DNA of 64,000 bases, taken from an uncultured Rhodocyclaceae bacterium (GTDB lineage: Bacteria; Pseudomonadota; Gammaproteobacteria; Burkholderiales; Rhodocyclaceae). Below, one piece after another: positions 1,096 to 63,326 of this stretch. Made by a program: the position numbers and the translations under genes. The notes beneath the pieces were generated by a model, which saw only the letters and a program-made list of their open reading frames with translations, ran no database searches and had not been told where the DNA came from. The stretch spans positions 7,072 to 71,071 of the forward strand of contig CAYYXS010000019.1 in the NCBI GenBank assembly GCA_964475635.1, given 5' to 3'. Position 1 is the stretch's first letter, and every line of letters starts with the position of its first letter.

Positions 1096-1134
1096 CTTTG
1101 CATCCCCATCAGTAAGTCGGAAAAATCTCTCCCG

Positions 1135-1380
1135 TCATGCTTGGCGCAGCCGTTCTATCGCCGCTTCCAGTTGTGCATCGTCGGTATCCAGCCGGCCGCT
1201 CACCAGTTCCCACAAATCGTGGTCTTCCATCGCCACCAGACGCTCCAGCGCCGCTTCCGTGTCCGCATCGACTTCGTCGCCGACGCGGCTCCAGTAGCGC
1301 TGGAACACCAGGTCCAGCTCGAGCAGGGCGCGCCGGCAGTGCCAGCGCAGGCGGCGCAGCCGCGCCCGGCGATCGTCCAT
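1135..1380 (-). CDS. sdhE: Succinate dehydrogenase flavinylation/assembly factor (SdhE/YgfY)
   Basis: RLRWHCRRALLELD motif, 81 aa, between sdhB and gltA. Confidence 0.9.
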   Translation of the reverse strand: MDDRRARLRRLRWHCRRALLELDLVFQRYWSRVGDEVDADTEAALERLVAMEDHDLWELVSGRLDTDDAQLEAAIERLRQA

Positions 1381-55896: not shown

Positions 55897-56949
55897 ATGA
55901 AATCGACAGGCGTTGCGAACCTAACACAGCTGGGCGAATTTGACGAGATCATCGACGTGCGCTCGCCGGCCGAGTATGCCGAAGACCACATCCCCGGCGC
56001 GGTCAATTGCCCAGTGCTCTCCGACGAGGAGCGCGCCCGCGTCGGCACGCTCTACAAGCAGGCATCGCCCTTCGCCGCCAAGAAGCTCGGCGCCACGCTG
56101 GTCGCCCGCCATATCGCCGAGCATATCGAAACGCGCTTCCTCGACCGGCCGCGCGAATGGCGTCCGCTGGTCTACTGCTGGCGCGGCGGCAAGCGCAGCG
56201 GCGCCATGAGCCACGTGCTGCGCCAGATCGGCTGGCCGGCCTGCGCGCTGGAAGGCGGCTACAAGTCCTGGCGCCGCCATGTCGTGGCGGAACTGGCCGT
56301 GCTGCCGCGCCGCTTCGCCTTCCGCGTCGTCACCGGTGCCACCGGCAGCGGCAAGAGCCGCCTGCTGGAAGCGCTCGCCGCGCAGGGCGCGCAGGTGCTC
56401 GACCTGGAACGGCTGGCGGCGCACAAGGGTTCGGTGCTCGGCGGCCTGCCCGACGAGGCCCAGCCCTCGCAGAAGATGTTCGAGAGCCGCCTGCTCGCCG
56501 TGCTGGGGAGACTGACTTTATCGGCGCCGATCTACGTCGAGGCGGAGAGCCGCAGGATCGGACAGATTCAGGTTCCGGATGCGCTGCTGGAAACCATGCG
56601 CGCCAGCCCCTGCCTGCGCATCGAGGCCACCGATGCCGCGCGCGTCGCCTTCCTCATCGGCGACTACGACTACTTCCTCGCCGACCCCGCCGCGCTCAAG
56701 GAGAAGCTCGCCTGCCTGCGCGAGCTGCAGAGCGGCGAGACGCTGTCGCGCTGGAACGCGCTCGCAGACGCCGGAGACTGGCCGGCGCTGGTGGCCGAGC
56801 TGCTGGCGCAGCACTACGATCCACTCTACAAGCGCTCGCAGGGAAAGAACTACGTCCGTTTCGCCGATGCGCCGCGCTTCGCCACGGACGATCTTTCGCC
56901 GGCCGGCCTGGCGCGGCTGGCGCAGGAGATCCTCGCTACATCTGCCTGA
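55897..56949 (+). CDS. mnmH: tRNA 2-selenouridine(34) synthase (SelU/YbbB)
   Basis: Rhodanese IIDVRSPAEY...YCWRGGKRS, P-loop GATGSGKS, HKGSVLG, VEAESRRIG; start 55888 or 55897. Confidence 0.94.
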   Translation: MKSTGVANLTQLGEFDEIIDVRSPAEYAEDHIPGAVNCPVLSDEERARVGTLYKQASPFAAKKLGATLVARHIAEHIETRFLDRPREWRPLVYCWRGGKRSGAMSHVLRQIGWPACALEGGYKSWRRHVVAELAVLPRRFAFRVVTGATGSGKSRLLEALAAQGAQVLDLERLAAHKGSVLGGLPDEAQPSQKMFESRLLAVLGRLTLSAPIYVEAESRRIGQIQVPDALLETMRASPCLRIEATDAARVAFLIGDYDYFLADPAALKEKLACLRELQSGETLSRWNALADAGDWPALVAELLAQHYDPLYKRSQGKNYVRFADAPRFATDDLSPAGLARLAQEILATSA

Positions 56950-57697
56950 ACAGATGCGCGTAGGCGCGGCTCACCGTGACCGTCTCCGGCCGGTCGCGCA
57001 GGCTGAGCAGCACGCGGCCGCTCCCGTCGTGGCGGGCCGCCGTGACGAACGCGGCGTTCACGATGGTGCCGCGATGCACCTGCCAGAAAGCCTCCGCGTC
57101 CAGCTGTTCGGCCAGCTCCCTGATCGGCGTGCGGATGAGCAGCTCGCCCGAGGCGGTCATCACCGCCGTATATTTGTCCGCCGCCTGGAAGTAGCGCACC
57201 TCGGCCACCGCCACCAGACGCACCGCCTCGCCGACCGAGGCGCGGATCCACTTCAGCGGCTGCGGTCTCGCCGTGTTCTGCAGACTGACTTTCTCCAGCG
57301 CGGCCATCAGCCGGCTGCGCTCCCTGTCCGAAGGCTCTGCGACGGCGCGGCGCAGGCGCGCCACCGTCTGCGCCAGGCGCGCCTCTTCCGCCGGCTTGAG
57401 CACGTAATCGAGCGCCGCGCGCTCGAAGGCCTCCACCGCGTACTGGTCGTAGGCGGTGACGAACACCACCTGGCAGGCAAAGTCCAGCCGCGCCGCCACC
57501 TCCAGGCCGGAGAGCCCCGGCATGCGGATGTCGAGAAAGGCGATGTCGGGCTTGTCCGCTGCCAGGCGCGCCAGCGCCGCCGGGCCGTCGTGGCAAACGG
57601 CGACGATTTCCAGATCCGGCCACAGTGCGGCGATGCGGCGGCGCAGATCTTCCGCCAGCAGCGGCTCGTCGTCGGCGATCAGCGCGGTGGGCTTCAT
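56936..57697 (-). CDS. LytTR-family response regulator
   Basis: MKPTALIADDEP, AFLDIRMP, FVTAYDQYA, DYVLKP, then LytTR motifs KYT, FWQVHRGTIVN, VSRAY. Confidence 0.95.
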   Translation of the reverse strand: MKPTALIADDEPLLAEDLRRRIAALWPDLEIVAVCHDGPAALARLAADKPDIAFLDIRMPGLSGLEVAARLDFACQVVFVTAYDQYAVEAFERAALDYVLKPAEEARLAQTVARLRRAVAEPSDRERSRLMAALEKVSLQNTARPQPLKWIRASVGEAVRLVAVAEVRYFQAADKYTAVMTASGELLIRTPIRELAEQLDAEAFWQVHRGTIVNAAFVTAARHDGSGRVLLSLRDRPETVTVSRAYAHLFRQM

Positions 57698-58911
57698 AGC
57701 GGCGCCAGCAGCGGCCTGACGAGGCGGCGCTCCAGTTCCGCCAGGGCCTGGGGCGGCTCGCCCTGCGCGGCGACGCCGAGCCAGGCGCGCAGCGCCGGCA
57801 GCAGCGGGCGCAGGCTGCGCGCCGCGCAATGGCCGTCGTCGCGCACGATCCAGGCGCTCACCCGCGCCGAGCCGCGCAGGCGGGCATAGCTGGCCGGCGG
57901 CACGTAGGGATCGCGCTCGCCGTTGACGATCAGCGTCGGCGGCAGCCGCTCCAGGGCGAAGGACGAGAGGTCGAAGCGGCGCAGCGCGGCGGTGAGCGCG
58001 GCATGCTCCGCCGTCTGCGGCAGGCCGAGCGCGGCGCGCAGGATGCCGCCCATGCCGTTGGGCAGGCCGTCCTGCTGCGCCGGCGCCGCCTCGCCGGTAG
58101 GGCCGCCGATGGCAATGGCGAAATCGACCGCACCGAGCAGCGCCAGCTTGAGCGCCCAGTGGCCGCCGAAGCTCATGCCGAACACGCCGGCCGCCGGCGC
58201 CGCGCCGCGCAGGGCGTGCAGCACGCCCAGATACACCGCCTCGGCATCCCCGGCGAGCGGCAACTGCGACTCGCCGGTGCCGGGCATGTCGAAGGCGGCC
58301 ACGCGCAGGCCGGCCATGCCGCTGAAGAACAGGCAAAGCGGGTGCATCTCGATCTTGAAGGTATCCACGCCGCCGCTGAGCAGCAGCAGGGGCGCATCCG
58401 GCGCGCGCGGCAGATACTCGTGCAGCGCCACCGCCGTGACGCCGCCGCGCCACGGCACCTCGATCACGCGGCGGCGTACGGGCAGGGCAAAGCCGGCCAT
58501 GGCGCGGGCGAAATACCCGAGCTGGCGCTGCGCCGCCGCGCGCCGCAGCGGCGTGGCGGCGACGGGAAAGCGCGCCGCACCCAGGCAGAGCGCCGCCGGC
58601 AGCCAGTCCTGGCGCGCCGCGTGTTCCTCGGCCAGGCGGTTCCATTCGAAGCACCAGCCGCCGGCCGCGTCGCTCCAGGCATCGACGATGGCGGCACGCG
58701 CACGATCCAGGTCCGCCGCCGGAATGCCCCAGCCGAGGAACTGTGCGGCGCGCTCGGCAAACAACTCCTCGACGGAAAACGCGAAGGGCTCGAAACCGAC
58801 GCCCCCGCGCAGCGGCAGAAATGGCGCGCCGTCTTCCTGCGCCGACGCCTCGGCGCCAAGCAGGGCCAGCCCGGCCGCTCCCAGCACATGCAAAAAATCG
58901 CGTCTGATCAT
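57694..58911 (-). CDS. Alpha/beta hydrolase (FrsA/DUF1100-like) with twin-arginine signal peptide
   Basis: MIRRDFLHVLGAAGLALLGAEASA Tat signal; GGVDTFK, FDMPGTGES, GMSFG nucleophile, GERD, DGH. Confidence 0.8.
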   Translation of the reverse strand: MIRRDFLHVLGAAGLALLGAEASAQEDGAPFLPLRGGVGFEPFAFSVEELFAERAAQFLGWGIPAADLDRARAAIVDAWSDAAGGWCFEWNRLAEEHAARQDWLPAALCLGAARFPVAATPLRRAAAQRQLGYFARAMAGFALPVRRRVIEVPWRGGVTAVALHEYLPRAPDAPLLLLSGGVDTFKIEMHPLCLFFSGMAGLRVAAFDMPGTGESQLPLAGDAEAVYLGVLHALRGAAPAAGVFGMSFGGHWALKLALLGAVDFAIAIGGPTGEAAPAQQDGLPNGMGGILRAALGLPQTAEHAALTAALRRFDLSSFALERLPPTLIVNGERDPYVPPASYARLRGSARVSAWIVRDDGHCAARSLRPLLPALRAWLGVAAQGEPPQALAELERRLVRPLLAPL

Positions 58912-58934
58912 ATCTTCCTCTTCTCTCTCCCCCG

Positions 58935-58962
58935 CCCCTCTCACCCCAAGCGGGGAGAGGGG
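58935..58962. repeat. REP-like hairpin between kinase and hydrolase genes
   Basis: CCCCTCTCACCCC-AAGC-GGGGAGAGGGG. Confidence 0.65.
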
Positions 58963-58971
58963 CGAAATTGT

Positions 58972-59982
58972 TCATGCCGGCAGTTCGAGCGTCGCCACCA
59001 CGCCCTGCCCCGCATTCGCCCGCACCTCCAGGCGGGCCGCCTCGCCGAACAGCGCGACCAGCCGGCTGCGCACGTTCTCCAGGCCGAAGCCGCTGCCGGC
59101 GCCGCTGCCGTCGCGCAGGCCGGCGCCGGTGTCGGCGACGGTGAGGCGCAGGCGGCCGTCCGCCAGCCGCGCGGCGATGCGCAGCTCGCCGCCGCCCACC
59201 TGCGGCTCGATGCCGTGGGTGACGGCGTTCTCCACCAGCGGCTGCAGCAGCAGCAGCGGGAAGGGGCGCGCGAGCAGTTCCGGCGGCACGTCGAAGGCAT
59301 AGCGCAGGCGCGGCCCCAGGCGCAGGCCGAGGATGTCGAGGTAGCGCCGCAGCAGCTCGATCTCGTCGCCGAGGGTGGATTCCGCCTCGCGCGTGCGCTG
59401 CAGCGTGGCGCGCAGGTAGGCAATCAGATCGGCGAGCAGGCGCTCGGCGCGCTCGGGATCGCTGCGGATCAGCACCGAAAGGTTGGCCAGGGTGTTGAAC
59501 AGGAAATGCGGCTCGATCTGCGCCTGCAGCATGCGCAGTTGCGCGTCGACGCGCTCCTTCTCCGCCAGCGCCTGGCGCAGCCGGCGCTCCTGCAGCTCGC
59601 CCTCGAGCAGGCCCAGGCGCTCGCGCAGGTAGAACAGGGCGCTGATGCCGGCGCCGAAAATGAGGCCGATCAGCAGCGACTGCCAGGCCATCTCGGCCAG
59701 CCAGGCGCTGTCGCGCGCGCCGAGCAGCAGCACGGACAGGCCGATCCCCGCCGCCACCCCGGCGGGCAAGGCGAAGAGCATGGCGTAGAGCCGCGCCGGC
59801 CCGTGGGCCGTCCAGCGATAGACGGCGAGACAGGCGGCGTAGATGGACAGGCCGATGCACTCGGAGATGAGCAGGTTCTCGTCGAAGGCGTGGCCGACGC
59901 CGATGGCGGTAAGGAAGGCCGCGATCAGCGCGTTGATGACGGCGATGGAGGCGAGCTGCGGCAGCGACAAAGACAGGGTCAT
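58972..59982 (-). CDS. LytS/AlgZ-type membrane sensor histidine kinase
   Basis: About 4 N-terminal TM segments, LQAQIEPHFLFNTL, LQPLVENAVTHG, DTGAG, GFGLENV. Confidence 0.93.
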   Translation of the reverse strand: MTLSLSLPQLASIAVINALIAAFLTAIGVGHAFDENLLISECIGLSIYAACLAVYRWTAHGPARLYAMLFALPAGVAAGIGLSVLLLGARDSAWLAEMAWQSLLIGLIFGAGISALFYLRERLGLLEGELQERRLRQALAEKERVDAQLRMLQAQIEPHFLFNTLANLSVLIRSDPERAERLLADLIAYLRATLQRTREAESTLGDEIELLRRYLDILGLRLGPRLRYAFDVPPELLARPFPLLLLQPLVENAVTHGIEPQVGGGELRIAARLADGRLRLTVADTGAGLRDGSGAGSGFGLENVRSRLVALFGEAARLEVRANAGQGVVATLELPA

Positions 59983-59991
59983 GGCCGCATG

Positions 59992-60900
59992 TTATACGGC
60001 GTGCGCCGCGCCTGTCACTTCGAGATAGACCTGCTCCAGCCCCACCGGCAGCAGGGCGAGCGAGGTGAGCTCCAGGCCGGCCAGGGCGGCGGCGATCTCC
60101 GCCAGGCCGAAGGCACGCGGCAGCCACAGCGTGGTGCGGCCGCCGTAGCGGCGCAGCGGCCAGCCGCGCGCGCCCGCCCAGGCCTTGAGCGCCGCCTCGT
60201 CGCGCGCCTCGACCGCCGCCAGCTGCGGCGCGGCGATGTGCCCGCGCAGCGCGTCGAGCGTGCCCTCGGCGGCGATGCGCCCGGCGCGCAGGATGCCGAT
60301 GCGCGCGCACAGCCGCTGCGCCTCTTCGAGATGGTGCGTGGTGAGCAGGATGGCCATGCCGTCGGCGTTGAGGCGGCGGATCAGTTCCCACAGTTCGTGG
60401 CGCGCCTCGACGTCGAGTGCCGCCGTCGGCTCGTCGAGGATGAGCAGGCGCGGCGCATGCGCCAGCGCCGCGGCGATGTGCACGCGCCGCTGCCAGCCGC
60501 CGCTCAGATTGCCGACGCGGCTGCGGGCGTACTCGCCGAGGCGAAAGGCCTCGATCAGCTCGGCCACGCGCGCGCGCCGCCGCGCCGCCGGCAGGCCGTA
60601 GAGGCGGGCGAAGAAGTCGAGGTTCTCGGCGCAGGTCAGCTCGCGGTAGAGGGCCACTTCCTGCGCCGCGTAGCCGATCAGGCGCCGGCCCTCCCCGCCC
60701 GTCGCCGCGCCCGCCAGCCGGATGCTGCCGACATCGGCGGCGAGCAGGTTGCACAGGATGTTGATGGCGGTGGTCTTGCCCGAGCCGTTCGGCCCGAGCA
60801 GGCCGTAGACCTCGCCCGGCGCGATGGAGAAAGTCAGTCCCTGCAGTACGGCGCGTCCGGCGAAGGATTTCTCCAGGCCTTCGATGTCGACGATGTTCAT
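59992..60900 (-). CDS. ABC-2 exporter ATP-binding protein (DrrA/NatA-like)
   Basis: GPNGSGKTT, LSGGWQRR, LILDEPT, LTTHHLEEA. Confidence 0.92.
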   Translation of the reverse strand: MNIVDIEGLEKSFAGRAVLQGLTFSIAPGEVYGLLGPNGSGKTTAINILCNLLAADVGSIRLAGAATGGEGRRLIGYAAQEVALYRELTCAENLDFFARLYGLPAARRRARVAELIEAFRLGEYARSRVGNLSGGWQRRVHIAAALAHAPRLLILDEPTAALDVEARHELWELIRRLNADGMAILLTTHHLEEAQRLCARIGILRAGRIAAEGTLDALRGHIAAPQLAAVEARDEAALKAWAGARGWPLRRYGGRTTLWLPRAFGLAEIAAALAGLELTSLALLPVGLEQVYLEVTGAAHAV

Positions 60901-61670
60901 GCCCGCCTCTCCTGCTCCAGCATGGCGCGGTAGGCGCGCGCACCCAGCCACAGGGCGAGCGCGGCGAAGGCGGCGAGGAAGGCGACATGCGGCTGCACCT
61001 CGGCCAGCGTGCGGCCCTCGGCCCAGACGCCCTTCAGTGCCTGGTTCATGTGATAGACCGGATCGGCCTGGGCCAGCGCGAGCAGGCTCGGCGGCAGCAG
61101 CGACACCGGGAAGAAGGTACCGCCCAACACCAGCAGCGGCACGCCGAAGCCGGCGACGGGGCCGTTCACGTCCTCGGTGCGGCGGGCGAAGCGCGCGCCG
61201 AAGAAGAAGCCCAGGCCGACGTAGGCGCAGACGCTGAGCGCGACGATCGCCAGCCCCAGGGGCAGGCTGCCGTGGAAGCGCCCGCCGAAGGCCCGCGCGA
61301 CGGCGTACACGATGGCGGTCTGCGCCAGGGCGATGACCAGATAGGCCGCAACGATGCCGAGGAAGCAGGCGGCCGGCGCCAGCGGCGAGAGCAGCAGCCG
61401 GCGCAGGGTGCGCCGCTCGCGCTCGGCGGCCAGCGTCGCCACGGTGCCGCCGAGGCAGCTGAAGAACAGCGCCGCGCCGATCAGGATGCCCGGCGCCGTG
61501 TGGTCGAAGGACGGCCCCGGCTGCTTGCCCGAAGCATACATGGTGCCGAACAGCAACAGCATCAGGGTCGGGAACACCGCCCAGAAGATCAGGCTGCGCC
61601 GCGTGCGCAGGAGCTCGATCAAGATGCGCCGGGCGATGGCCCAGGTCTCGGCGGGAATGCGGGCGATCAC
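60897..61670 (-). CDS. ABC-2 exporter permease
   Basis: Multiple TM segments, AERERRTLRRLLLSP, GGTFFP; ATGA overlap with the ATPase gene. Confidence 0.9.
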   Translation of the reverse strand: MIARIPAETWAIARRILIELLRTRRSLIFWAVFPTLMLLLFGTMYASGKQPGPSFDHTAPGILIGAALFFSCLGGTVATLAAERERRTLRRLLLSPLAPAACFLGIVAAYLVIALAQTAIVYAVARAFGGRFHGSLPLGLAIVALSVCAYVGLGFFFGARFARRTEDVNGPVAGFGVPLLVLGGTFFPVSLLPPSLLALAQADPVYHMNQALKGVWAEGRTLAEVQPHVAFLAAFAALALWLGARAYRAMLEQERRA

Positions 61671-61747
61671 GCCAGTTCTCCCAGGATGGCCTGCAGGGCG
61701 GCGGCGAACACGGCCGGGCCGAGCGCCAGTTGTGCGGCGAGATGCAT
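61667..61747 (-). CDS. Putative 26-aa hydrophobic micro-protein MHLAAQLALGPAVFAAALQAILGELA
   Basis: TGATG overlap with the upstream 2TM stop, GTGA overlap with the permease start, SD-like GGAAGG upstream. Confidence 0.45.
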   Translation of the reverse strand: MHLAAQLALGPAVFAAALQAILGELA

Positions 61748-62043
61748 CAGCGCCCTTCCCTGCGGCTGCGTTCGGTCAGCTCGCGCAGCTTGCGTTCTTC
61801 CCACTCGGCACCGAGGAAGCGCCCGCCGAAAATAACGCTCGCGCCGTGGATGACGACGGCGATGCCCCAGCCGGCGAGCGGCCACACCGACCACAGGCGG
61901 CCGCCGCCGGCAAGCAGGTTGAGGATGAGCAGGCCGGCATTCACGGCGAGGTACACGCCGAGATGGACGTAGAAGCCGCGCAGCCGGCGCACCTGGCGGC
62001 GCGCAGCCGCATATTCGGGAGTGTCTTCGAAGGTCGTTGCCAT
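61747..62043 (-). CDS. 2TM domain protein
   Basis: ARRQVRRLRGFYVHLGVYLAVN...WSVWPLAGWGIAVVIH...WEERKLREL; AAGGAG RBS. Confidence 0.88.
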   Translation of the reverse strand: MATTFEDTPEYAAARRQVRRLRGFYVHLGVYLAVNAGLLILNLLAGGGRLWSVWPLAGWGIAVVIHGASVIFGGRFLGAEWEERKLRELTERSRREGR

Positions 62044-62056
62044 TGCATCGCTCCTT

Positions 62057-62524
62057 TCAGGCGGGTTTGAAGACCATGAAGTAGAGGTTCGCCGCCGGCA
62101 GCACGGTGGCGAGAACGCCCACCCGCAGCCAGAGGCGGTTCAGCCGCCAGTACGCGGGCGGAATCTCGCCGCCGCCGGCGAAGCCGCGCGCCAGGCGCGC
62201 CAGTTTGATCTGCAGCGGAATCAGGATGCCGACCCAGAGCAGGCCGGAGAGCACGAACAGCGCCTGCCCCCAGGCCAGCCAGGGCGCGGCGAGCGGCAGA
62301 TCGTGCAGCAGGGCGCCGGCATAGCCGCCGGCGCCGAGCAGCGTCGCCCCGCCGAAGGTGAACACCCAGTCGGTCAGCGTCACCTGGCGCTGGGCGAAGG
62401 CAACGATGGCGGGGTTGCGCGTGCGGTCGGCCATCACCTTCCACCAGCCGGTGACGATGATGTTGCCGAGGAACAGCACGACGCCGGCCAGATGCAGGGT
62501 CTTCAGTGCGAGATAGGCGTCCAT
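62057..62524 (-). CDS. DUF2269-family integral membrane protein
   Basis: YLALKTLHLAGVVLFLGNI...TDWVFT...YFMVFKP; GGAG RBS. Confidence 0.8.
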   Translation of the reverse strand: MDAYLALKTLHLAGVVLFLGNIIVTGWWKVMADRTRNPAIVAFAQRQVTLTDWVFTFGGATLLGAGGYAGALLHDLPLAAPWLAWGQALFVLSGLLWVGILIPLQIKLARLARGFAGGGEIPPAYWRLNRLWLRVGVLATVLPAANLYFMVFKPA

Positions 62525-62648
62525 GACTGTCTCCGACGGGCCACCCGAAGGAGGCGGCGCGTAACGATTGGAAACCGTGCCTCGCACGGTTGAACCGTCG
62601 TCACCCCTGTCCTTGGGAAAGGGGCTGGCGGCAAGGTCATTCTCATCC

Positions 62649-63227
62649 TCAGCTGTCCTCGCGCGCCGCGCGGCGGACCGCTTCCAGCCACTTGTCGCGC
62701 TGCGCCGGCGAGGAGGTCTTCACCGGGCCGAACTGCGCGATGCGCACCGGCTTGATGCCGCAGAACTCGAGGATGGTGCGGCGCATCTGGTTGTGGCCCG
62801 GCATGCGGTAGAACCAGCGGTAGTACCAGGGCGGCGTGTCCATGGTGACCAGCAGGCGCGCGCTGCGCCCGGCGAGCAGGCGATCCCACCAGGGCGAATC
62901 CTTGCGGTAGCTGAAGGCGAAGCCGGGCAGAAAGACGCGCTCGATGAAGCCCTTCAGCAGCGCCGGCAGGCCGCCCCACCAGGTCGGGTAGACGAAGGCG
63001 AGATGGTCGGCCCAGAGAATCGCTTCCTGCGCCGCAGCCAGATCCGCCTCCGGCGCCTGCTCGGCGCGATAGCCGGCATGCAGCACCGGATCGAAGGCCA
63101 GGTCGGCCAGCGCCAGCTCGCGCACTTCGGCGCCGGCCGCGCGCGCCGCCTCGCCGTAGCCGGCGGCGAGCGCACCGCACAGGCTGTCCTGCCGCGGATG
63201 GCCGAGAATGACCAGGATTTTCTTCAT
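62649..63227 (-). CDS. Flavodoxin-fold NAD(P)H-dependent oxidoreductase (NQO/MdaB/KefF-like)
   Basis: ILVILGHP, ADHLAFVYPTWWGGLPALLKGFIERVF, LLVTMDTP. Confidence 0.9.
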   Translation of the reverse strand: MKKILVILGHPRQDSLCGALAAGYGEAARAAGAEVRELALADLAFDPVLHAGYRAEQAPEADLAAAQEAILWADHLAFVYPTWWGGLPALLKGFIERVFLPGFAFSYRKDSPWWDRLLAGRSARLLVTMDTPPWYYRWFYRMPGHNQMRRTILEFCGIKPVRIAQFGPVKTSSPAQRDKWLEAVRRAAREDS

Positions 63228-63257
63228 GACTGCCTCCATCGGGTTGGCGATGGCGGC

Positions 63258-63326
63258 AGATTAGCCGGACGGCTGCCACCGGCTCAACGGCGTTGCGACG
63301 AAACGGCGGAATCGCAGGATGAGTCG
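63258..63326 (-). promoter_or_regulatory. Candidate LytTR-activated promoter of the accessory cassette
   Basis: Imperfect direct repeat CGACTCATCC / CGTTTCGTCG with 21-bp period, then TTGAGC-N18-TAATCT. Confidence 0.45.

Follow-up and report, generated by a model that had tools for sequence, protein, structure and literature searches.

The window, that is, the whole 64,000-nucleotide stretch of contig CAYYXS010000019.1 from an uncultured Rhodocyclaceae bacterium, in whose coordinates all open reading frames are given here, carries on its minus strand a gene for a 405-amino-acid FrsA/AbyA5-like alpha/beta hydrolase (57694–58911), flanked by the genes for a LytS-type intramembrane histidine kinase (58972–59982) and a LytTR-family response regulator (56936–57697). 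The kinase matches Pfam PF06580 and HATPase_c (PF02518) and the regulator matches Response_reg (PF00072, the receiver domain) and LytTR (PF04397), the composition of a LytS/LytTR two-component system; in NCBIfam, the regulator is BtsR-like at 141 bits, which is under the equivalog cut-off. A hydropathy scan assigned four transmembrane helices to the kinase, with loops of no more than 13 residues and no extracytoplasmic domain. The hydrolase gene starts with the ATG at 58911, preceded by GAGGAAGAT; its product begins with MIRRDFLHVLGAAGLALLGAEASAQEDG, and its TGA stop codon shares the tetranucleotide ATGA (57697–57694) with the ATG of the regulator gene. A preliminary description of this DNA had placed the hydrolase between a kinase and its cognate regulator and had considered it coupled to the LytTR gene through an ATGA overlap. 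Both the order and the overlap are present, and the coupling is further supported by a search for terminators on the minus strand from the kinase to the regulator gene, in which none was found.

The hydrolase was assigned to Pfam PF06500 (FrsA-like/DUF1100), which it matches over residues 83–338 with 35.4 bits (cut-off 22), whereas its score for the NCBIfam FrsA equivalog NF003460 is 46.8 bits against a cut-off of 477. A profile derived from a 42-sequence alignment matched FrsA (3mve, 5.5e-42) and AbyA5 (4ywf, 2.1e-39) in the PDB, as well as Wdyg1p/Ayg1p (8qd7, 8qd1), 2,6-dihydroxypseudooxynicotine (DHPON) hydrolase (2jbw) and AntI (6hxa); in a single-sequence search, AbyA5 was the top match (E = 6.5e-15) and the Ayg1p/AntI/DHPON-type enzymes were matched weakly (6e-6 to 1e-4). 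The AlphaFold2 model has a predicted local distance difference test (pLDDT) value of 90.9 and consists of an N-terminal helical domain and an alpha/beta hydrolase core, with residues 1–22 disordered (pLDDT <50). A Foldseek comparison of this model, which the preliminary description had proposed as a check, recovered AbyA5 first (TM-score 0.82), then FrsA, DHPON hydrolase, Wdyg1p and AntI, the top matches ranging from 0.66 to 0.82 when normalised to the target. The assignment to the FrsA/DUF1100-like proteins and the kinship to the C-C bond-cleaving enzymes Ayg1p and DHPON hydrolase, both made in that description, thus agree with the Pfam, profile and fold matches, and the kinship extends to AntI. 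The Ser-Asp-His triad that it had recognised is also upheld: the nucleophile is S247 in GMSFG (codon 58173–58171), the acid is D334 in GERD (57912–57910) and the histidine is H361 in DGH (57831–57829), all unvarying across the 42-sequence alignment and aligned with the Ser, Asp and His of AbyA5, S247 also with the Ser of DHPON hydrolase. The same alignment shows no variation at D183 of the GGVDT oxyanion loop (residues 180–184) or in a DMPGTGES motif. The protein is a serine hydrolase of the FrsA/AbyA5/Ayg1p/DHPON-hydrolase superfamily and not an orthologue of FrsA.

Among solved structures, AbyA5 (abyssomicin esterase-like lyase; 4ywf/5no5) is the nearest by both sequence and fold, sharing approximately 23% identity as well as the helical domain and core; however, it is a cytoplasmic protein encoded in a polyketide gene cluster, whereas the window protein has a twin-arginine translocation (Tat)-type signal and no biosynthetic neighbours. 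FrsA (3mve/4i4c/3our), the fermentation/respiration switch protein, is cytoplasmic and binds EIIA-Glc. It has the GG(V/L)D(T/S) loop and the overall fold in common with the window protein, but an export signal is incompatible with the role of a cytoplasmic partner, and the equivalog score is far under the cut-off. In the alignments, Vibrio vulnificus FrsA (3mve/3our) has an Arg (GFRFGG) at the position occupied by the nucleophilic Ser in the hydrolase family and in AbyA5. Ayg1p/Wdyg1p, PlAntI and DHPON hydrolase share with the window protein the superfamily fold (Foldseek E 1e-15 to 1e-17) and a GxSxG serine triad; they themselves are cytoplasmic enzymes of pigment or nicotine pathways. D183 in G-V-D-T corresponds, as a sequence match, to the GLDS motif of the Ayg1p/AntI-type C-C hydrolases. 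In Afyg1p, the GLDS loop's backbone forms the oxyanion hole and its Asp aids keto-enol tautomerisation (PMC11165489), and the mechanism of AntI has also been described (PMC6601290). Because FrsA has the same motif, GVDT/GLDS is not diagnostic for C-C cleavage. The predicted reaction is hydrolysis of an ester or of the C-C bond of an aryl ketone or beta-diketone in a hydrophobic or aromatic compound.

At the N-terminus, residues 1–24 (58840–58911, minus strand) form a Tat-type signal peptide, MIRRDFLHVLGAAGLALLGAEASA, followed by QEDG, in which an RRxFL motif precedes a 12-residue uncharged h-region and A-S-A. Compared with the consensus (S/T-R-R-x-F-L-K, an h-region and AxA), the sequence reads I-R-R-D-F-L-H, VLGAAGLALLGA and A-S-A before Q, and an 18-residue linker connects the signal to the start of the conserved domain at F43, the position at which all close cytoplasmic homologues begin. 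The twin-arginine signal and ASA site named in the preliminary description are thus present, and they are missing from the cytoplasmic relatives. RRDFL is constant in the three available N-termini (the window protein, P0001 with MHRRDFLK and P0027 with MNRRDFLQ), with varying flanking residues, and TAT_signal (PF10518) is the sole Pfam family that matches all three, at 15.2, 18.6 and 24.4 bits, respectively, against a gathering threshold of 22.7. TatC is encoded in the genome of the window (239.5 bits). Most likely, the hydrolase folds in the cytoplasm and is then exported by the Tat pathway to the periplasm.

When 1.84 billion representatives were scanned exhaustively with HMMER, 451 proteins were matched at E ≤ 1e-3, of which 41 reached E ≤ 1e-30, and genome loci were obtained for 80 homologues at the species level, chiefly from Actinomycetota and Myxococcota with a few from Pseudomonadota. 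None of these 80 homologues has a twin-arginine signal, and at none of the 80 loci does a kinase or LytTR gene like those in the window adjoin the homologue. The Tat-signal clade (SH-aLRT support 100) is composed of the window protein, P0001 (79% identical), P0027 (65%)/P0010 (76%) and a fragment, P0037; P0027 and P0010 are the two called halves of one frameshifted gene (L102:6001–7235), the frameshift being either an assembly error or the mark of a pseudogene. The hydrolase was not found in any of 27 same-genus genomes searched, and among 33 other genomes of the same family or order only four gave matches, with E values of at least 4.7e-9. Elsewhere in the FrsA-like family, Sec-type signals occur in the Bacteroidota L022, in L032 (labelled Saccharibacteria) and in acidobacterial members, and N-terminal transmembrane anchors occur in a Thermodesulfobacteriota-type clade; the signal- or anchor-bearing branches are L022, L032, L046–L058 and L065–L078. 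As judged from these N-termini, export appears to have arisen several times independently in a family whose best-known members are cytoplasmic. A cytoplasmic member of the representative library, P0020 (894 amino acids), carries a C-terminal FAD-dependent aromatic-ring-hydroxylase-like domain, a fusion that weakly hints at aromatic substrates for the FrsA-like family. Gene neighbourhood was rejected as a clue to the substrate: 78 flanking genes contained no dominant partner, and the three contexts that were inspected were heterogeneous. A literature search on exported FrsA-like proteins or 2TM/LytTR systems found nothing relevant.

Kinase orthologues (48–77% identity) were identified in 21 further genomes from the same genus and family; at each of the 21 loci, the kinase and regulator genes are directly adjacent or overlap, and the window's hydrolase was found at none of them. 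In nine relatives that were compared, the usual junction is GCCGGCATGAA, in which the TGA of the kinase gene lies within the ATG of the regulator gene. Two ATGAA copies on the minus strand of the window correspond to this junction: the right copy (57693–57697), in which the regulator ATG overlaps the hydrolase TGA, is the ancestral kinase/regulator junction, and the left copy at the kinase stop codon (58971–58975) is a remnant of the ancestral GCCGGCATGAA overlap. They bracket a 1.28-kb insert with the hydrolase as its sole gene; hence the ancestral TGA serves as the hydrolase's stop codon. Directly before the stop codon, the hydrolase ends with LLAPL in the window and with LLAD in the L102 orthologue, which lies in an unrelated context. 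The link of the hydrolase to the two-component system is thus seen as a recent, lineage-specific insertion and not as a conserved functional partnership. The 60-nucleotide spacer between the kinase and hydrolase genes contains a repetitive extragenic palindromic (REP)-type hairpin (58933–58964, minus strand) with the palindrome consensus CCCTCTCCCCGCTTGCGGGGAGAGGG, of which at least 49 copies with up to three mismatches occur in the genome versus none for a reversed control. The hairpin folds with approximately −30 kcal/mol, is not followed by a U-tract, leaves the ribosome-binding site unpaired and is missing from the spacer of the relative L081; a role as an attenuator or terminator was rejected, the hairpin being a genome-wide REP element that lacks a U-tract. 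Composition was uninformative as a sign of recent transfer, as the G+C content at third codon positions of the hydrolase gene (0.90) equals that of its neighbours (0.83–0.95).

The closest relative of the locus is L081/L082, one metagenomic contig in two assemblies, and the other Tat-clade locus is L102; the contigs of both L081 and L102 are short or metagenomic. L081/L082 shows 83% DNA identity to the window and encodes a hydrolase that is 79% identical. In L081, the last 11 nucleotides of the kinase gene (GCCGGCATGA) are kept directly upstream of the ribosome-binding site of the hydrolase gene, the rest of the kinase gene, the ATP-binding cassette (ABC) genes and the DUF2269 gene are missing, the 2TM gene is frameshifted and the regulator gene is cut after 30 codons. 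Because the kinase tail and the cut regulator persist, L081 stems from an ancestor with the order kinase-hydrolase-regulator, in which the two-component system decayed later. The hydrolase gene of L081 is intact, with no insertions or deletions over 405 codons relative to the window, and the ratio of nonsynonymous to synonymous substitution rates (dN/dS) between the two genes is 0.27 overall, 0.23 in the domain and 0.57 in the signal region (dS 0.44), which shows that the hydrolase has been under purifying selection since before the window and L081 diverged. The retention of the hydrolase without the kinase indicates that the enzyme does not need the two-component system for its function. In L102, the 65%-identical Tat-signal orthologue has a divergent tripartite ATP-independent periplasmic (TRAP) transporter operon on one side and an HbpS-like gene on the other, and not a two-component system.

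Upstream of the kinase gene in the window, on the minus strand, lie genes for an ABC-2 exporter (59992–61670; permease 60897–61670 and ATPase 59992–60951, with Pfam and DrrA/NodI-like NCBIfam matches), a 2TM protein (61747–62043) and a DUF2269 protein (62057–62587; together 61747–62587), and the first gene of the cassette encodes a flavodoxin-fold NAD(P)H quinone-reductase-like protein (62649–63239; PF02525, 141 bits). By synteny, the 2TM and DUF2269 genes are the usual companions of the kinase-regulator pair in relatives, where the pair occupies a fixed chromosomal site from a methyltransferase gene to a convergent selenouridine synthase gene. Gene content at this site varies: L116, L118 and L121 have the minimal layout without extra genes, others have 2TM alone or DUF2269 with 2TM, and the window's version is the largest. 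L095 is likewise minimal, apart from a 25-codon 2TM remnant (MESTLDQSPRYQAARCQVRRQQRRQ followed by a stop codon) in the region from the conserved promoter to the kinase gene (approximately 1100–1350, minus strand); because of this remnant, the 2TM gene is suggested to be ancestral and lost in some lineages. The ABC-2 exporter was found between the 2TM and kinase genes at none of the 21 orthologous loci examined. In two genomes of the same genus (L092 and L093), the DUF2269 and 2TM genes are followed by a gene for a Hydrolase_4 alpha/beta hydrolase with an N-terminal transmembrane anchor (L092:2563–3579 and L093:2566–3669, minus strand; Pfam 88–90 bits) and then by the kinase gene. This enzyme shares no sequence kinship with the FrsA-like hydrolase, and its position between the 2TM and kinase genes is interpreted as an independent recruitment of an extracytoplasmic hydrolase. 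A link of Hydrolase_4 to the two-component system beyond these two congeners was rejected, as neither a kinase nor a regulator lies close to its three further orthologues in the family sample. Presumably, NatK/NatR-NatAB-type LytS/LytTR operons, which control an adjacent ABC-2 exporter, resemble the operon of the window. As in the NatKR type, the latter combines a LytTR regulator with a PF06580 kinase that is small and intramembrane and with an ABC-2 exporter of the DrrA/NodI-like kind; unlike in that type, exporter and hydrolase were found only in the window's version of the cassette, and the conserved partners are 2TM and DUF2269.

A candidate LytTR (AlgR-like) operator, the 11-mer CGTTTCGTCGC (63295–63305, minus strand), was identified upstream of the first cassette gene; it resembles the AlgR-type LytTR site. 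The 11-mer occurs only six times in the 4.4-Mb genome, and it was found on the operon strand, with no or one mismatch, at 14 of the 22 orthologous loci, which vary in gene content, in each case upstream of the first cassette gene, several of the remaining loci ending too close upstream to be scored. Its equivalents are in L091, L094–L099, L116–L119, L121 and L126, with two copies 41 nucleotides apart in L119, and in the window and L095 it is followed by TTGAGC-N18-TAATCT. This phylogenetic footprint is consistent with autoregulation of the cassette, and its position upstream of the first gene implies that all accreted genes lie downstream of one control region. A weak internal promoter-like site lies 5′ of the kinase gene (60018–59989).

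These observations can be brought together in a reading in which the Tat-exported serine hydrolase was recruited as an extra periplasmic output of an autoregulated envelope/xenobiotic-response cassette, and we give this reading about an even chance. A serine hydrolase of the FrsA superfamily would have gained a twin-arginine signal peptide, and a 1.28-kb segment carrying its gene would have recombined into the GCATGAA stop/start overlap of the LytS/LytTR pair in an ancestor of the lineage; the junction would thereby have been duplicated, so that the old TGA now terminates the hydrolase gene while the start of the regulator gene remains ATGA-coupled. Downstream of the candidate operator, the hydrolase would be co-expressed with the two-component system and controlled by it, and it would act in the periplasm as an accreted effector beside the quinone-reductase-like protein, the DUF2269 and 2TM proteins and the ABC-2 exporter. 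Since the hydrolase is found at the kinase/regulator junction in one lineage only, it is most likely an added output and not a part of the signalling loop. Of the elements of this reading, the data show the family, the triad, the signal motif, the anatomy of the insertion, its restriction to one lineage and the purifying selection; export, control by the LytTR protein, the role as an effector and the class of substrate are inferred. Several points weigh against recruitment as an output: the window's signal is consensus-like yet under the TAT_signal threshold (15.2 versus 22.7 bits); the cytoplasmic homologues have no dominant neighbour, TetR_N being the most frequent with six of 78 flanking genes at 42 loci; the one indication of control of the hydrolase by the LytTR protein is a conserved motif; and the L081 hydrolase survives without the kinase or an intact regulator, so that co-location could be neutral.

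In its strongest form, this last point leads to a gene that landed by microhomology at a permissive junction, is transcribed by operon read-through and encodes a general periplasmic esterase with no functional tie to the system. The 4–5-nucleotide microhomology at both ends of the insert fits such an origin, as do the unrelated contexts of the orthologues, the lack of a conserved neighbourhood anywhere in the family and the persistence of the gene through the decay of the two-component system in L081. However, the insertion left an ATGA-coupled regulator start and an intact ribosome-binding site, the gene has been kept under purifying selection since before the split from L081, and the cassette has repeatedly accreted envelope-located functions; a neutral passenger is accordingly rated as somewhat unlikely. 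Still less probable, in our estimation, is a cytoplasmic enzyme like FrsA whose N-terminal extension is nonfunctional or bypassed by a downstream start. Although the sub-threshold TAT_signal score and a c-region without a basic Sec-avoidance residue would agree with this, no plausible start codon exists from residue 1 to F43, apart from a TTG (at L50) that lies inside the conserved block, and all three orthologues have a Shine-Dalgarno sequence in front of this same start codon at residue 1. Moreover, RRDFL is constant in these orthologues despite the fast evolution of the signal (dN/dS 0.57 versus 0.23 in the domain), and other branches of the family independently acquired Sec signals or transmembrane anchors. 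Taken together, we regard the absence of export as very unlikely.

The preliminary description had suggested a feedback loop in which the exported enzyme would either produce or break down the kinase's signal, and it had named homologues lacking both the signal and linkage to LytTR genes as an outcome that would speak against this; as far as the homologues are concerned, that is the situation in 80 of 80. The proposal did not hold up well in other respects either. The position of the gene and its tight coupling would suit a loop, but this linkage is limited to one lineage: none of the 21 orthologous pairs has an intervening gene. The Tat-clade orthologue with 65% identity lies next to a TRAP transporter and not next to kinase or LytTR genes. 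The entry of a second, unrelated membrane-anchored hydrolase into the same operon in two congeners could mean that the signal is lipophilic and hydrolysable, but the Hydrolase_4 orthologues elsewhere are likewise unlinked. An intramembrane kinase could detect a membrane-partitioning substrate or product. Against a loop, the kinase has no periplasmic ligand-binding domain, and L081 lost the kinase and kept the hydrolase. A feedback loop thus finds no support in the comparison of loci and is considered unlikely. Because no dedicated extracytoplasmic domain is present (loops of ≤13 residues), the kinase must sense within the membrane or via partners such as the 2TM protein, and it cannot use a domain of its own to sense a soluble periplasmic ligand. 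In a more specific scenario, the 2TM/LytS/LytTR cassette would sense a membrane-partitioning ester or aryl ketone, such as an antibiotic or intercellular signal, and extracytoplasmic hydrolases, here the Tat-exported FrsA-like enzyme and in two congeners the membrane-anchored Hydrolase_4 enzyme, would have been recruited repeatedly to degrade it in a self-limiting sense-and-quench circuit; we hold this to be decidedly improbable. A quinone reductase together with a DrrAB-like exporter and an enzyme related to aryl-ketone C-C hydrolases would be a fitting set for an aromatic or quinone compound, but this is pure speculation.

The locus offers a case, traceable almost to the base, of a gene inserted into an overlapping kinase-regulator stop/start with translational coupling kept and the old TGA reused. 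It also adds a very small Tat-signal clade, of four sequences (three loci and one fragment), to a family known for cytoplasmic enzymes. Should the inducing compound be a substrate of the hydrolase, the cassette would form a compact module that senses, exports and degrades; otherwise, the locus would cleanly illustrate how an operon grows by accretion. In either case, the protein should not be named FrsA in annotation.

In L081, the regulator gene is truncated by a sequence (L081:2105–2707) that gave no Pfam match, and a search of a plasmid collection for this element returned one weak match only. It matches four dispersed places in the genome of the window with 77–92% identity and is probably a mobile element or dispersed repeat.

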